The translations under genes and the position numbers were made by a program. From a virus (taxonomy: Duplodnaviria > Heunggongvirae > Uroviricota > Caudoviricetes), in the IMG/VR virus record IMGVR_UViG_2718218131_000009, positions 1 to 44,487 of that record: a stretch of 44,487 nucleotides of DNA; one strand, given 5' to 3'. Of this stretch, positions 10,209-36,899 are shown one piece after another. The number at the start of each line of letters is the position of its first letter. Position 1 is the stretch's first letter. The notes below the pieces were generated by a model. The model ran no database searches. It was not told the DNA's origin and saw nothing but the letters and a program-made list of their open reading frames with translations.

Positions 10209-10880
10209 TCAGCGACCAATCACCACAACCTGACCACCGTCCCCTTCGTCTGCCGTGCTGATCTCCTGAGAAACCACGCGTGACCCCACGCGCATTTCAC
10301 CGTACAGAACCGGCAGAACATTGCCCTGGGCAACCATGTTATCCAGTGAGGAGAAATAGGTGTTCTGTTTGCCGTTATCTGTACTTGCTGCCGTGGGCGT
10401 CCTGGCTTTCGGTGCCAGCATCTGCGCCACACCACCGAGCACCATACTGGCACCGAGAGAAAACAGGATACCGGTCATACCACCGGCCCCAATGGCTGCC
10501 CCCCATGCTGCAAGGGTGGCTCCGGCAGTAAAGAATGATCCGGCAATGGCGGCAGCCCCCAGAACAATCTGGAATACGCCCCCTGGCTTGGCCCCGGCGA
10601 CTCTGGGAACAATATGAATCACAGCGCCGTCAGGCAGAGTCTCATGTAACTGCGCCGTTAACCCGGACGTGCTGACGTCCCGCCCGGCAATCCGTACCTG
10701 ATACCAGCCGTCGCTCAGTTTCTGACGAAACGCCGGGAGCTGTGTGGCCAGTGCGCGGATGGCTTCAGCCCCCGTTTTCACACGAAGGTCGATGCGGCGG
10801 CCAAATCGTTGCAAATCCCCGTAAAGGCAGATGCGCGCCATGCCCGGTGACGCCAGAGGGAGTGTGTGCGTCGCTGCCAT
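10209..10880 (-). CDS. I: Tail assembly protein I
   Basis: 223 aa, the same length as lambda gpI. Overlaps K by 103 bp exactly as in lambda. Confidence 0.9.
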   Translation of the reverse strand: MAATHTLPLASPGMARICLYGDLQRFGRRIDLRVKTGAEAIRALATQLPAFRQKLSDGWYQVRIAGRDVSTSGLTAQLHETLPDGAVIHIVPRVAGAKPGGVFQIVLGAAAIAGSFFTAGATLAAWGAAIGAGGMTGILFSLGASMVLGGVAQMLAPKARTPTAASTDNGKQNTYFSSLDNMVAQGNVLPVLYGEMRVGSRVVSQEISTADEGDGGQVVVIGR

Positions 10881-11521
10881 TTGTCGGTATACCTCTCTCG
10901 TTTGCTCAGTTGTTCAGGAATATGGTGCAGCAGCTCGCCGTCACCACAGTAAATGGCGGCATGATTCGGCACCGATGAACCAAAACAGCACAGCAGCACA
11001 TCGCCAGGCTGCGCCTCTGTCAGTGCGACACGGTAAAAACCCGTCGCCTCCATATTGTCAAGATAGAGATTCTGACCGTGACACCACCAGTCATCCTCCC
11101 GGTGAAAATCCGGCAGTTCAGTCCCCGCCAGATGATAAGCGTCCCGGAACAGCGCGTAACAGTCCGTCACCCCGTGCTCAAAGCGCCGCCCGGTGAGATG
11201 CGGCACACAGCGGAACTTATGAATCGCCCCCCGGCAGACCAGCCACCACGGCAAATCACTCTGCACCTGCAGCCGCCGGTCAGCCTCACTCAGCCAGGGC
11301 AGACCACTGGGGTGGCTGTGGACCAGCGCCACAATCTCACCCTGCATTTCTGCCTGCAGCCAGTCCTCCGGAGCCATCCGGAAATAATCCTCCGGCTCAC
11401 CGGAAATATTCACGCAGGGAAAATAGCTTTCCCCCTCCGGCGTTCTCACCACGAAGCCGCACGACTCCGCTGGCGCACATCGCCGGGCGTGCGCCAGAAT
11501 CGCTGATTCTGTCTCTGTCAT
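10778..11521 (-). CDS. K: Tail assembly protein K (JAB/MPN plus NlpC/P60 domains)
   Basis: HSHP JAMM-type motif and DCYALF Cys-peptidase motif. Start placed at the ATG at 11521 just after L; a lambda-equivalent internal start at 11377 is also possible. Confidence 0.85.
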   Translation of the reverse strand: MTETESAILAHARRCAPAESCGFVVRTPEGESYFPCVNISGEPEDYFRMAPEDWLQAEMQGEIVALVHSHPSGLPWLSEADRRLQVQSDLPWWLVCRGAIHKFRCVPHLTGRRFEHGVTDCYALFRDAYHLAGTELPDFHREDDWWCHGQNLYLDNMEATGFYRVALTEAQPGDVLLCCFGSSVPNHAAIYCGDGELLHHIPEQLSKRERYTDKWQRRTHSLWRHRAWRASAFTGICNDLAAASTFV

Positions 11522-32014: not shown

Positions 32015-32664
32015 GCCGCCATCTCCCTGACCAGTTTTTCCGCCTGCTGGCGAACCTGCACCAGAAAGGCTTCACCACATGCCTCAAGTTCATCGCGCCC
32101 GATGTAGCTGATTGCCGGTCCCTTCCAGGTCTTGTCGAAAACAGCAATAGCACCAGCGAAGAAAGCGCCTGTCGGCACCTGCTTCTCATCCTTCGGGATA
32201 AACCAGGCAGGCAGTTCAAAACCAATACGCCCGCGAATAAAAGCAATATGGTCCGCATCTTCCGGCCACCACACTTCGCTGGTGGCAGCTTTGATCAGGA
32301 AAACATAGCGCCCGCCCTTATCACGCATGGCACTGGCATGTTTCATGATGTAACGCATGCCGGTGATGTATTGCCCCTCATGCTGACTGGCGCGGCTGTA
32401 TGGGGGATTACCAAAGGCAGCACCTTTAAGCTCCGCAAGACGTTCTGACCAGTCATGCGCCAGCGCGTTATCTTCCGCCGTGTAATACGCGGCACATTTG
32501 GCGTTATCACCGTCAGTAAACAGATCCAGAACAAACGGGCCAAACAGGGTGTTAATTCCCCAGAAAATGTTGTCCGGCGTGCGCCACTGATCGCCCACTT
32601 CCTTCAGTTCATGGGCTGGTTTGTTCCGCAGTTCCACCAGCGCCTGGCAATATTTATTACTCAT
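32011..32664 (-). CDS. Phage Dam-family N6-adenine methyltransferase
   Basis: WRTPDNIF... and FGNPPYS (NPPY) motifs. Start probably MSNKYCQ at 32664; the track start at 32697 overlaps the upstream gene. Confidence 0.85.
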   Translation of the reverse strand: MSNKYCQALVELRNKPAHELKEVGDQWRTPDNIFWGINTLFGPFVLDLFTDGDNAKCAAYYTAEDNALAHDWSERLAELKGAAFGNPPYSRASQHEGQYITGMRYIMKHASAMRDKGGRYVFLIKAATSEVWWPEDADHIAFIRGRIGFELPAWFIPKDEKQVPTGAFFAGAIAVFDKTWKGPAISYIGRDELEACGEAFLVQVRQQAEKLVREMAA

Positions 32665-33158
32665 TAAGCCCCCACGTAATTCCCTGACAGATACCACTCT
32701 TCACCCGATGCAGCGCGCTTGCTGCTTTTCCGTAAGCACCGCTCACGACGCGCCAGAAAATTGTTTCGTTCTGGCTGGGAGTGGCTTTCACGGAATGCCG
32801 CCATCCACACGGTTGCAGCACGACGGTATAAGCCCCTGGACTCCAGTTCTTCAGCCTGGCGGGTCAGGCACAAAATCACCCGTGGATCGTTAGTGCCGAC
32901 ATAGAAATTGCGCACAGGTCTGGTTTCTCGAACTGGTTGTGGTTCCGGTTCCTGCGCTCTCTCAGTCAGGCGCGGGAAATGTCTGCGTGTATCTCCTTCA
33001 CAACGGTGAGCCACACGCCCACTCTGACGTAACTTGCTTGCTGACTGCAGAACGCGCTGCCGTGAGTAACCTGCAAAAGCATCCGCAATGTCTCCGGAAG
33101 TACACCCCGGATGGGCTTCAATGAATTTCTGAACTTCATTCAAAAGACTCATGATCAC
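32664..33158 (-). CDS. PerC-family-like regulator with N-terminal extension
   Basis: The C-terminal region EELESRGLYRRAATVWMAAF matches the PerC/Pch signature (ELEskGLWRRAA..W). Confidence 0.6.
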   Translation of the reverse strand: MIMSLLNEVQKFIEAHPGCTSGDIADAFAGYSRQRVLQSASKLRQSGRVAHRCEGDTRRHFPRLTERAQEPEPQPVRETRPVRNFYVGTNDPRVILCLTRQAEELESRGLYRRAATVWMAAFRESHSQPERNNFLARRERCLRKSSKRAASGEEWYLSGNYVGA

Positions 33159-33973
33159 CCCCTGAATCCTGCCGGGATCTGGCTGTAGTCCACGTTGTCG
33201 TAACTGGCTTTGAAGTACGGGTCCTCACGTCTGGCTGCAGATACCGCAGGAACTTCCCAGGATTCTTCGAAATGACGATCCGGACCAAAGAACGTGACAG
33301 CCTGTTTCACAAATTGTGTGCCGCTGTTACCCATCGCAGATACCCAGCCCGCGTAGCGTTTCACACCTTCCAGCATGGTTTCGGGGTTTACCCCCTCATT
33401 CAAACGGGCTTTCCAGGCTTTGAAGGCTGCAGATTTTGAATTACCACCAGCACGTTTGGGATATGCCAGCCATGCCTGCTCAAACTCCGGAGAGTATTCC
33501 GGCCGGTTTGAACGAACTCGCACGGACTCATCAACTGATGCACCAACAGCTATTGGTTCATTGACTGGTTCTTTGACTGGTTCAAAAGAGTGACTGGTTC
33601 TGGGTGAATCTCCTGCACTACCCCCTGGTGCAACTCCTGCACTACCTGGTGAATTTGCTGCACCAGATAGTGAATTATTTGCACTACCCCCTAGTGAATC
33701 TCCTGCACCATCCAGATGAAGGAGATAGGTATTACTTGAGTTACCTTTTTCACCTTTCCGGGTGACTTTTTTTACCAGCCCGGACTCACAAAGGGCCGCA
33801 ATATGATTCATCACAGAACGTTTGCTAATCTCGCACTGGTCAGCAATATGCTGGTAGCTGGGCCAGCACTCACCCTGATCGCTGGCATTATCAGCCAGCT
33901 TGATCAGAACCAGTTTTCGCAATGGATTACCCACTCGAATTTTCATCGCTTTAACCATCAGCTCCATACTCAT
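33155..33973 (-). CDS. Replication initiator (O-like, N-terminal winged HTH)
   Basis: N-terminal HTH (SYQHIADQCEISKRSVMNHIAALCESGLV), a low-complexity linker encoded by iteron-like DNA repeats, and a C-terminal domain. ATGA coupling to both neighbours. Confidence 0.7.
   Translation of the reverse strand: MSMELMVKAMKIRVGNPLRKLVLIKLADNASDQGECWPSYQHIADQCEISKRSVMNHIAALCESGLVKKVTRKGEKGNSSNTYLLHLDGAGDSLGGSANNSLSGAANSPGSAGVAPGGSAGDSPRTSHSFEPVKEPVNEPIAVGASVDESVRVRSNRPEYSPEFEQAWLAYPKRAGGNSKSAAFKAWKARLNEGVNPETMLEGVKRYAGWVSAMGNSGTQFVKQAVTFFGPDRHFEESWEVPAVSAARREDPYFKASYDNVDYSQIPAGFRG
33560..33700. repeat. Iteron-like direct repeats inside the replication gene (candidate ori)
   Basis: Three copies of TGACTGGTTC, two of GTGAATCTCCTGCAC and two of CTGCACTACC within about 140 bp. 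Confidence 0.5.
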
Positions 33974-34194
33974 GCTGCACCTCCGAGATGCTTCATGTTT
34001 TTTCCGGAGCGAAAGGCTATAAGCGGCATACTGACGCGGTAATTACGGCCCAACGGTTCACAAATCACTTTCTGACATTCACGGTCAACCAGGCTAACAC
34101 GTAGAACATGCCCTGCAGGCGTGGTGTACCACTGGCCCGGACGAGGACAACGGAAAGTCTGATTGGTAAACCGTTTGAAAATATTCCGGATCAT
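33970..34194 (-). CDS. Hypothetical protein (74 aa)
   Basis: Translationally coupled (ATGA overlaps) to both the Rha-domain gene and the replication initiator. Confidence 0.5.
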   Translation of the reverse strand: MIRNIFKRFTNQTFRCPRPGQWYTTPAGHVLRVSLVDRECQKVICEPLGRNYRVSMPLIAFRSGKNMKHLGGAA

Positions 34195-35342
34195 TTGCGC
34201 CCCCTTACCTCTGAAGGGTTCAGTGACAGATTTATGAGACTGGCCAGTACCGCCGCGTCGTTGATGCGGTCATACAGACTTATAGCCAGCGGGGATTCGG
34301 CTTTTGCCAACATGGGATAAAGCTGCTGCAGCCAGACTTTGTGGATTACCGACAAGTGGGAGTAAAGCACGCTGGCGTTATGTGCGGCATCGCTCAGCGT
34401 GGATGGCCTTGAAAGCTGCTTTTCCATCTGGTTAAAGGCATTGATGTATGCCTCTTTGAACTGGGCAGCACGTTTCCCCGTGAAACCCATAGCAAGAAAC
34501 GCAAAGCCGTCGCGGGTTATTTGATAGCAAGGTAGTTTGCGGCCTGTGCAATCGGTGTAATCACTCACCGAAAAATTGCGGGCAGTGAATGATGCGGAAC
34601 ATTCAAGCGTGCGGATCTTTTTCAGTACATCGTCATGACGTTTGGAGAAGAAGTTGGCAACAGCCAGGGATGAAGTAACAGCCTGACCATCAACGATGGC
34701 AATTTCAGGTTGAGTGAGGGTTGGGATCGTAGCCATGATGGCAGCCTCTTTGGTGATTTTTAATAACTCACCACCAAGGCTTTCCACGACCTTATTGGTG
34801 GTGAGACGTACAGGGGTGGAAATACCGGTCACCAAAGAACCCGGCCCAACCGAAGTTGGCCCTGCACGCCCCACCATAATTTGGGCGTAATGCTGCTCAT
34901 GACACAAAAAAACCGCAAGAGCGCGGTTGTGCGCTTTGGTGAATTCCGGGTTTCCACGCCCGGCACCCGCTTTATAAGGTGCCTGAACAGTGTAACGTCC
35001 CGGAATGGCAGAATCAATGTGCTGGTGGTCCTTCACACTCAACAAAATCACGCCTGAATTTCCACAAAGGACTAAAGCACTCATGCGGGTAGTCTTTGCG
35101 AAGATAGATAACGCGCTGCGTTTCTGGCTCCCAACGAATAACATGGACATAAAGCCCTCTTCCGTCACGAAACCAGCGGTTAAGTTCCTGCACAACTCGC
35201 CCCCCACAGTCAGGTAAAGTTCTCTGTGGTTACTTACAGCCAGGTGATTTGGTAATCTGCATTCATGCCGTAACAACAGGTGTTCAGCGACGCTGACCAC
35301 CAGCTGTTGCGACAAACGGTTATTTGCCGTTAAACTGTTCAT
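34191..35342 (-). CDS. Rha-family regulatory domain protein with ~200-aa N-terminal region
   Basis: C-terminal half (from M203, ATG at 34736) is IPTLTQPEIAIVDGQAVTSSLAVANFFSKRHDDVLKKI, a Rha domain. The upstream 202 codons are in frame and begin with an ATGA overlap to the CII-like gene. Confidence 0.6.
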   Translation of the reverse strand: MNSLTANNRLSQQLVVSVAEHLLLRHECRLPNHLAVSNHRELYLTVGGELCRNLTAGFVTEEGFMSMLFVGSQKRSALSIFAKTTRMSALVLCGNSGVILLSVKDHQHIDSAIPGRYTVQAPYKAGAGRGNPEFTKAHNRALAVFLCHEQHYAQIMVGRAGPTSVGPGSLVTGISTPVRLTTNKVVESLGGELLKITKEAAIMATIPTLTQPEIAIVDGQAVTSSLAVANFFSKRHDDVLKKIRTLECSASFTARNFSVSDYTDCTGRKLPCYQITRDGFAFLAMGFTGKRAAQFKEAYINAFNQMEKQLSRPSTLSDAAHNASVLYSHLSVIHKVWLQQLYPMLAKAESPLAISLYDRINDAAVLASLINLSLNPSEVRGRK

Positions 35343-35902
35343 GCGTTAGTTTCTCCACAGACACAAAACGCCACGACGCCCGGAGCTGCACACTCGCGGG
35401 CGTCACTCTTTTCTGGAGCGCAAAAGATTTTGTAGACCAGTGCTGCATGCTCCTGGAGCTTCGAAATTGACAGATACAACTCATCATTAATTGCTGTCTG
35501 CTCGTGTGGCTCCACTACCCCGTCTTCGATTGCCGAACGAATCTGCTTTGAGTAACTCCCGATCTGTTCGATGACTTCCAGCAGGCGCTGGTTTATATCG
35601 GCGTTCTCTACTTCCTCAATTTCAGGAAGCGATACAAACACCCCACCAGCAGACTGTGCGACAGCATCCGCAATGTAGTGAGTGCCAGCCGCGCGCTGTA
35701 AAATCATTGCCCATCCCAGCGGGAAAATCTGATCGCCATCTGCACGAAGGCGGTTGAATAAAGCGTTCTCTGTTACATCCAGCCACTCAGCAGCTTCAGC
35801 GTACCCCCCCGGCAACGCCGCGATAGTTTTTCTGACAGCTTTCACGTACCACTCAGGCTGTTTTTCTACTTTCCAGTGATGCTTACCCACGGTTAGCCTC
35901 AT
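35339..35902 (-). CDS. CII-like regulator (YdaT family)
   Basis: 187 aa, downstream of the cro-like gene in the rightward operon, matching the YdaS/YdaT arrangement of the Rac prophage. Confidence 0.65.
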   Translation of the reverse strand: MRLTVGKHHWKVEKQPEWYVKAVRKTIAALPGGYAEAAEWLDVTENALFNRLRADGDQIFPLGWAMILQRAAGTHYIADAVAQSAGGVFVSLPEIEEVENADINQRLLEVIEQIGSYSKQIRSAIEDGVVEPHEQTAINDELYLSISKLQEHAALVYKIFCAPEKSDARECAAPGVVAFCVCGETNA

Positions 35903-36224: not shown

Positions 36225-36899
36225 ATGAAAACAGTCCATGACATCCGGCGGTCTAACGCCAGAAAACTGAGAGATGGTGTTGGCGGGAATTCTTCCTTTG
36301 CCACCATGATTGATCGCGAGCCAACCCAGACCAGCAGGTTTATGGGAGATGGTGCTACTAAAAATATCGGTGACAGCATGGCACGGCACATCGAAAAATG
36401 TTTCGACCTGCCTGTCGGATGGCTTGATCAAGAACACCAGACAACAAACATCACAAAAAAACCTGATGTTTCAATTACTAACAAACAAATAACGTTAGTC
36501 CCTGTCATATCATGGGTACAGGCCGGAGCATGGAAAGAAGTTGGCTATTCTGAGGTTGATTTGAGCACAGCAGAAACGTATCCCTGCCCTGTACCCTGTG
36601 GCGAAATGACTTATATCTTGCGGGTGATTGGTGATTCAATGATTGATGAGTACCGCCCGGGAGACATGATTTTTGTAGATCCTGAAGTCCCTGCCTGCCA
36701 CGGTGACGACGTTATTGCATTGATGCACGATTCAGGCGAAACCACCTTCAAGCGGTTGATAGAAGATGGAACACAGCGTTATCTCAAAGCATTAAACCCA
36801 AACTGGCCTGAGCCTTACATTAAGATTAACGGTAATTGCTCTATAATTGGTACAGTGATTTTCTCGGGAAAACCAAGAAGATACACAATAAAGGCCTAA
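36225..36899 (+). CDS. CI-type repressor (HTH plus S24 LexA-like peptidase domain)
   Basis: C-terminal VIGDSM Ser nucleophile and TFKRL Lys. N-terminal HTH ending in PVGWL. Confidence 0.85.
   Translation: MKTVHDIRRSNARKLRDGVGGNSSFATMIDREPTQTSRFMGDGATKNIGDSMARHIEKCFDLPVGWLDQEHQTTNITKKPDVSITNKQITLVPVISWVQAGAWKEVGYSEVDLSTAETYPCPVPCGEMTYILRVIGDSMIDEYRPGDMIFVDPEVPACHGDDVIALMHDSGETTFKRLIEDGTQRYLKALNPNWPEPYIKINGNCSIIGTVIFSGKPRRYTIKA

Follow-up and report, generated by a model that had tools for sequence, protein, structure and literature searches.

Why does the Rha regulatory domain of a phage protein begin only after about two hundred codons of unbroken upstream sequence? The question is raised by a 383-codon open reading frame (ORF) on the minus strand of the IMG/VR virus record IMGVR_UViG_2718218131_000009 (Caudoviricetes), whose full 44,487 nucleotides (nt) are hereafter the window. 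The first-pass annotation of this DNA offered two explanations, a novel N-terminal domain fusion or an upstream gene that had lost its stop codon. Its observation is correct and its interpretation is incorrect. We consider a P4-type (eta/kil-like) RNA immunity cassette the likely identity of the locus, which belongs to the early-right operon of an mEp460-like lambdoid phage and is placed between the cII-like and the replication genes; this judgement includes the full mechanism described below. Two RNA genes, isrK and C4, lie inside the long frame upstream of Rha. The frame and the gene to which it is coupled are as follows.

34191..35342, minus strand: long open frame of 383 codons with an ATG start; the eta-like form, with a 202-codon leader in frame with Rha
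35339..35902, minus strand: YmfL/CII-like gene; Pfam Phage_CP76 PF06892 8.5e-15, NCBIfam YmfL NF041471 4.7e-50

As the first-pass annotation had described, the ORF at 34191-35342 is continuous over 383 amino acids (aa), and its ATG overlaps the TGA (35339-35341) of the YmfL/CII-like gene in an ATGA at 35339-35342, read directly in the sequence.

RNA genes and antisense target sites in the leader

The leader holds matches to two Rfam families, and the antisense RNA among them has two pairs of complementary sites.

34906..34982, minus strand: isrK, a P4 seqA-type small RNA (sRNA; c4-a1b1); Rfam RF01394, 67 bits, E 2.6e-12
34928-34911, minus strand: stem of the isrK intrinsic terminator, followed by a T run; found by terminator detection
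34989..35017, minus strand: candidate isrK promoter; -35 TTGATT (35017-35012), 17-nt spacer, -10 TACACT (34994-34989), start G 34982
34794..34881, minus strand: C4, a P4 CI-type antisense RNA; Rfam RF01695, 83.6 bits, E 4.1e-15
34957-34951, minus strand: site a1, GTGGAAA, inside isrK
34942-34934, minus strand: site b1, TCACCAAAG, inside isrK
34837-34829, minus strand: site b', CUUUGGUGA, on the C4 side, within the 12-nt loop of C4 hairpin 2 (34840-34829)
34822-34816, minus strand: site a', UUUCCAC, on the C4 side, single-stranded and adjacent in C4
34746..34787, minus strand: C4 target region on the mRNA, holding a2 and b2
34787-34781, minus strand: site a2, GTGGAAA, in the mRNA target region
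34756-34746, minus strand: site b2, TCACCAAAGAG, running into the Shine-Dalgarno sequence GAGG (34748-34745) of the internal start

In C4, 27 pairs are fully (100%) kept by all nine variants compared, and changes on both sides are seen at nine pairs. Helices 1 and 2 of isrK are 87-92% paired with compensatory changes. The isrK terminator helix is only 58% paired in the MAFFT alignment, where the variant terminators seem to be 1-2 columns out of register, and no covariation is claimed for the terminator. The 5' stem of C4 holds an AUG (34877-34875) in frame with Rha. This AUG lies at +106 from the isrK 5' end, compared with +107 in Gifsy-1, and is kept in nearly all of the 78 distinct C4 modules collected below.

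The b' and a' sites of C4 are complementary to b1 and a1 in isrK and also to b2 and a2 just upstream of the ATG at 34736. Both sets (b1/b'/b2 and a1/a'/a2) co-vary across eight specificity types. Specificity between b' and its targets was scored as the longest complementary run of the loop alone. The cognate b'-b1 runs are 7-12 nt, and the match of a' to a1 and a2 extends over 6-7 nt. Cognate b'-b2 runs reach 10-12 nt in seven of the eight types, each the highest value in its row; the cognate run of L085 is 7 nt and merely ties the non-cognate values. RNA duplex energies of whole C4 hairpin segments against the targets were dominated by stem opening and did not separate cognate from non-cognate pairs, and the loop score replaced them. 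The b1 word TCACCAAAG has four copies in the window (0.47 expected), three of them within this module.

Judged from these sites, the a1b1 / c4 / a2b2 architecture of the c4 family is present here. Because the co-varying b2 site covers the Shine-Dalgarno sequence of the internal ATG, we read ATG 34736 as a regulated translation start under antisense control.

The Rha protein and its internal start

34191..34736, minus strand: canonical Rha-family protein, as read here, 181 aa; internal ATG 34736-34734; PF09669 5.2e-31, residues 21-106

The internal Met (MATIPTL...) is residue 203 of the long ORF. Phage_pRha (PF09669) occupies residues 223-308 of that ORF and TIGR02681 residues 214-311, and the domain is indeed displaced from the N-terminus of the long frame. 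In the 181-aa form, positions 1-91 of the PF09669 model fall on residues 21-106, TIGR02681 matches from residue 12, and the distant Rha homologues (Paenibacillus, Lactobacillus, P22 rha) align from residue ~12. Since the Rha models and the distant homologues begin at the internal Met, we take the 181-aa protein from ATG 34736 to be the canonical Rha. The claim that a normally N-terminal Rha domain is internal here holds for the long frame and fails for the 181-aa form, in which Rha is N-terminal. Like other members of the family (PF09669/TIGR02681, e.g. P22 rha), the 181-aa product fits both models from the N-terminal end onward; the only difference is that its gene is embedded behind an RNA switch. 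The C-terminal ~75 residues have no family assignment. The context of the internal start, GAGGCTGCCATCATGGCTAC, is identical to that of the P4 kil start.

An open leader frame with no apparent protein-level constraint

We collected 80 related loci through the C-terminal part of Rha, a route not biased for the long ORF, and added annotated phages. The region 35342-34700 is represented by 46 distinct sequences in about nine diverged types, down to ~84% identity. A further gene lies within the leader.

35014..35193, minus strand: DUF4222 gene, 59 aa, GTG start, in another frame within the long ORF; Pfam PF13973 9.5e-14

Variable alignment columns were counted at codon positions 1/2/3 of the long frame.

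35342-35194: 17/21/16
DUF4222 region: 5/23/4
isrK region: 15/15/10
C4 region: 17/16/18
C4 end to ATG: 13/14/13
Rha part: 43/34/96

The 23 columns in the DUF4222 region, out of 32 variable ones, are at third codon positions of the DUF4222 frame. Column entropy over 46 distinct C4 sequences from unrelated contigs is similarly even by codon position (0.75/0.79/0.81). Because a codon-position bias is absent from the leader and present in Rha and DUF4222, the 202 codons of the leader are under no protein-level selection and encode no protein domain. Neither proposal of the first-pass annotation survives this comparison. The supposed N-terminal fusion partner consists of isrK, C4 and the out-of-frame DUF4222 gene, with no third-position bias in the long frame. 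The unannotated upstream gene, DUF4222, has its own frame and its own stop, and no variant carries a stop at the gene boundary, which argues against a stop lost between two genes.

The frame is open in the relatives nonetheless. A comparison of orthologous prophages for a stop codon between the two parts had been suggested in the first-pass annotation; from 35342 to the Rha start, 45 of the 46 distinct variants have none, insertions and deletions come in multiples of three, and the orthologues do not consistently show two separate genes. Between isrK and the ATG, none of 21 distinct variants has a stop in the Rha frame, although each carries 27-105 substitutions; the other two frames hold 84 and 33 stops in total. 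The sole variant with a broken long frame (L046) has several 1-nt deletions in isrK and C4, one of them in the C4 stem region, and is either a decaying prophage or the result of sequencing errors.

For a broader comparison, viral contigs were searched first by pattern and then with a covariance model, which yielded 86 C4 modules (78 distinct). The segment from isrK to the cargo was then compared in 46 diverse representative modules that share less than 90% identity. Thirty-three of them have no stop in the frame of the conserved C4 AUG, and each other frame is open in two. In 15 of the 33 open modules, the long frame begins at an ATGA whose TGA closes an upstream ORF 50 or more codons long. 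We conclude from these alignments that the long frame is kept open beyond chance, and comparison with its relatives makes the locus a clean example of a reading frame that stays open in the absence of amino-acid constraint.

The window has a single isrK-C4 module. Tandem isrK-C4-cargo arrays, with ~656-nt spacing and up to three in a row, occur in L133, L110, L091 and L112. In L133, C4 lies at 9709-9796, 10365-10452 and 11021-11108, and the stop of each Rha-like cargo overlaps the next long-ORF start in an ATGA. A second isrK-C4 copy directly follows the Rha gene in L020 and L038 (2078-2404). In L098, L151, L092 and L180 the frame from the C4 AUG spans 416 codons and, in L098, enters tyrosine-recombinase/integrase-like sequence as judged by eye, which suggests that C4 modules sit in front of integrases, as in satellites or phage-inducible chromosomal islands.

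Proposed mechanism

The steps below are drawn by analogy with P4, P1 and Gifsy-1 and build on the RNA genes, target sites, covariation and short Rha found above. In a lysogen, the 77-nt isrK RNA and some read-through would arise from a promoter immediately before isrK. C4 would be processed out of the read-through transcript and would pair with a2/b2, blocking Rha translation. This pairing would probably also cause premature termination before the 74-aa gene that follows Rha and the replication genes. The decoy sites in isrK could titrate C4. On transcripts from the upstream early promoter, ribosomes ending the cII-like gene would re-initiate at the ATGA and read the leader across both RNA genes. 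Translation as such, whatever peptide it yields, would prevent the folding of the terminator and C4 as well as the binding of C4, and Rha and the downstream genes would then be expressed regardless of the RNA immunity. If leader translation overrides the gate in this way, it would explain a frame that is open without amino-acid conservation.

The candidate promoter at 35017-34989, by analogy, may drive isrK; in a three-way comparison it takes the same position as promoter-like hexamers upstream of Gifsy-1 isrK and P4 seqA. The TGA stop of the DUF4222 gene is part of its candidate -35 hexamer.

Extending this to other phages is more tentative. We propose, as a possibility, that the isrK-C4 cassette in mEp460/ST64B/cdtI-type phages is a second immunity gate, RNA-based and situated between cII and the replication genes, with at least eight exchangeable specificities, which is overridden by translating a cII-coupled 202-codon 'junk' leader overlapping DUF4222. 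The open frame would be kept for the act of translation alone, over a protein gene as well as two RNA genes. As a corollary, PF10554, 'ash family protein' and 'Rha/Ash' would designate RNA genes. On our main reading, a P4/P1-style RNA immunity switch lies directly upstream of the replication genes in a family of lambdoid and Stx-related phages. Its eight specificity types can be read from sequence, which predicts hetero-immunity groups, based on RNA, among mEp460-, ST64B-, cdtI- and Stx-related phages.

The main repressor of the phage is a LexA/S24-type protein encoded at 36225-36899 on the plus strand, opposite to the long ORF. Two immunity layers would follow for this phage, one protein-based (the LexA/S24-type repressor) and one RNA-based.

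Comparison with P4, P1/P7 and Gifsy-1

In P4 (NC_001609, L207), the ORF at 8168-8767 is ATGA-coupled to ORF88 at 8764-8767 and contains the Rfam matches isrK (seqA, 8615-8692) and C4 (CI, 8420-8507). An internal start in the context ...EAAIMAT... leads to a 65-residue product, which we take to be the published length of Kil. P4 has a constitutive promoter within the long ORF, upstream of seqA, and kil is reportedly the first translated gene downstream of this internal promoter. The long ORF of the window matches P4 Eta in BLASTP with an E value of 2e-10.

The arrangement of the P4 immunity locus is alike in several respects. Its long ORF is ATGA-coupled to the upstream gene, spans both RNA genes (isrK/seqA and C4/CI) and is in frame with a terminal short gene; the Ash match discussed below is common to both loci, as is the internal start motif GAGGCTGCCATCATGGCTAC, and replication genes lie further downstream. 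The antisense loop is complementary to an upstream (seqA) and a downstream (seqC) site, the latter at the ribosome-binding site. The differences are in the surroundings. The cargo here is a 181-aa Rha-domain protein, whereas that of P4 is the 65-aa Kil. The host element is not a satellite but a lambdoid phage whose main repressor is LexA-like, the leader is ~300 nt longer with the DUF4222 gene in another frame, and the upstream coupled gene is YmfL/CII-like in place of the AlpA/Vis homologue of P4. According to PMC10111431, which cites Forti et al. 1999, Kil is a truncated Eta, and full-length Eta is made from no promoter but the upstream one, its translation being coupled to that of the alpA homologue. 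Eta translation is reported there to prevent termination, so that it overrides the RNA-mediated termination of P4. In that account the immunity-dependent termination is Rho-dependent, and the antisense RNA matures by processing. IsrK and C4 have been equated with seqA and CI, and such systems were noted in lambdoid prophages (PMC3632133). What is new here relative to the known P4 eta/kil and c4 kind is the Rha cargo and the out-of-frame DUF4222 gene in the leader.

In the immI locus of P1/P7, the c4 antisense RNA with its a1b1/a2b2 sites controls icd-ant (Rfam RF01695, RF03163; Weinberg et al. 2010, PMC2864571). The P1/P7 antisense RNA is processed from the transcript that it regulates, as proposed above for C4; in both loci there are two flanking pairs of target sites, specificity types arise by co-varying loops and targets, and the cargo is of the antirepressor/Bro-network type. 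The locus of the window differs in that b2 lies directly on the Rha ribosome-binding site and a1/b1 lie within a terminated sRNA (isrK). The ORF list of the window contains no separate icd-like ORF between C4 and the Rha start.

The isrK-orf45-anrP-isrJ locus of Gifsy-1 is alike in its isrK sRNA with terminator read-through, in a C4-like RNA (STnc1160, orf45'), in the conserved AUG of the C4 5' stem and in a b2-type site adjoining the Shine-Dalgarno sequence of the cargo. In Gifsy-1, IsrK activates anrP translation in trans through orf45, which starts at the same C4 AUG; orf45 is translated and needed for anrP expression (PMC4825925). There, orf45 ends on the cargo start (AUGA; TTATGA junction), whereas here the frame continues uninterrupted into Rha. 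The Gifsy-1 cargo AnrP, which belongs to ORF6N (PF10543), has no detectable similarity to this Rha (PF09669; BLASTP E 1.5), and the Gifsy-1 locus sits downstream of Q and not in the early-right operon. At 34277-34329 of Gifsy-1 (L208), isrK (RF01394) and c4-a1b1 (RF03163, clan CL00128) overlap in the Rfam output. The two models appear to describe the same element, and only isrK passes the gathering score in the window.

Alternative readings

Several points weigh against the proposed mechanism. The retention of the frame over 35342-35194 in ST64B is compatible with chance in a neutral-substitution simulation (P ~0.3), and the sequence evidence for selection on the open frame upstream of isrK is weak. 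In L172, a diverged module, the frame becomes open only downstream of DUF4222. The long frame and DUF4222, which share one RNA, would be in competition for translation. The candidate isrK promoter is absent from the output of the promoter scan and matches the consensus at only 8 of 12 positions. By analogy with Gifsy-1, whose coupling ORF starts inside C4, the relevant upstream start could be 34877 and not 35342.

The alternative that survives best is an annotation artefact: chance or composition would account for the open leader, no translation of it would ever take place, DUF4222 and the 181-aa Rha would be the sole products, and the ATGA at 35342 would be no more than the cII-like stop. We regard it as unlikely. 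The far-upstream simulation and the frame of L172, closed over DUF4222, fit it. So do the lack of codon-position bias in a leader that overlaps a real gene in another frame and the starts called by the Prokaryotic Genome Annotation Pipeline (PGAP), which are shorter and inconsistent. It is harder to reconcile with an open frame in 33 of 46 diverse modules against two for each other frame, or with the stop-free isrK-to-ATG segment of all 21 variants, given their substitutions and their length changes in multiples of three. ATGA starts recur, including in the tandem arrays, and full-length P4 Eta is reported as translated and functionally relevant (PMC10111431).

A Gifsy-1-type leader alone is considerably less probable. 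Translation would start at the C4 AUG 34877, as for orf45, and continue in frame into Rha to give a 228-aa isoform, leaving 35342-34878 irrelevant. The near-universal C4 AUG, the 47 stop-free in-frame codons that follow it and the requirement for orf45 translation in Gifsy-1 (PMC4825925) are all in its favor, but this AUG lies within the C4 stem with no obvious Shine-Dalgarno sequence (upstream GCCCAAATT), and the same 33 modules are also open through isrK, 105 nt further upstream, which an orf45-only model does not require. The reported position of P4 kil as the first gene translated from the internal promoter also counts against it.

Least credible is a genuine two-domain protein with an N-terminal 'Ash' domain that acts as a polypeptide alongside the Rha domain: the Pfam match, the conserved open frame, the single-protein annotations and the 'Rha/Ash' proteins of the literature described below would suit it, but the match falls exactly on isrK and C4, Rho-independent terminator included, conservation there tracks RNA pairing and antisense target covariation, substitutions are even over codon positions, the same 'domain' stands before unrelated cargos, and an antisense site covers the ribosome-binding site of the internal start.

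The Ash match and existing annotation

The Phage_ASH (PF10554) match covers residues 117-213 of the long ORF (window 34704-34994; E 2.6e-15) and maps onto isrK, C4 and the first Rha codons. Protein-like evolution was not seen in the matched region, where variable columns are flat over codon positions and which coincides with the two Rfam RNAs. In P4, the eta frame matches the full PF10554 profile across seqA and CI (E 3.8e-23), and the epsilon protein matches PF25738, not PF10554. A P4-satellite paper calls the epsilon protein Ash and used PF10554 as an epsilon marker (PMC8628076). The cargos preceded by the Ash 'domain' are unrelated and include P4 Kil, a 69-aa product, Rha-like proteins and an integrase-like ORF. 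PF10554 probably detects the RNA immunity region; in this ORF, going by the overlap with the Rfam matches, the Ash match is the conceptual translation of the isrK and C4 RNA genes.

The region 34100-35450 is ~96% identical to phage mEp460 (JQ182728), whose record annotates the long ORF as a single protein, mEp460_041 'regulatory protein Rha'. The cdtI and ST64B records likewise annotate it as one protein. In relatives, PGAP places the start at varying internal positions, and some of its annotations include a DUF4222 gene or an 'ash family protein'; the DUF4222 gene is called by PGAP in E. coli genomes and is missing from the mEp460 GenBank annotation. A paper on Stx phages names 'Rha/Ash domain' proteins and describes the function of the Ash domain as unknown. 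The reading of this locus as an RNA immunity cassette corrects a widespread annotation, namely the two-domain Rha/Ash protein of mEp460, cdtI and ST64B and the PGAP 'ash family protein', and its practical value is mainly for annotation.

Downstream genes

33970..34194, minus strand: 74-aa hypothetical gene, ATGA-coupled to Rha
33155..33973, minus strand: replication-type protein; HTH_36 and a sub-threshold DnaD_N match; 'replication protein' in mEp460; downstream of the RNA gate

The ATGA-coupled chain noted in the first-pass annotation does continue through these two genes. The Rha frame and the 74-aa ORF are joined by an ATGA at 34191-34194, and the 74-aa ORF and the HTH_36/DnaD_N replication-type gene by another at 33970-33973, both read in the sequence. 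The 74-aa ORF has no match in Pfam or NCBIfam. Past the replication gene, the ATGA/GTGA-coupled chain runs on into an ORF at 32664-33158 (minus strand); PGAP annotates the equivalent ORF of a related E. coli prophage (L003) as a PerC family regulator (yfdN).

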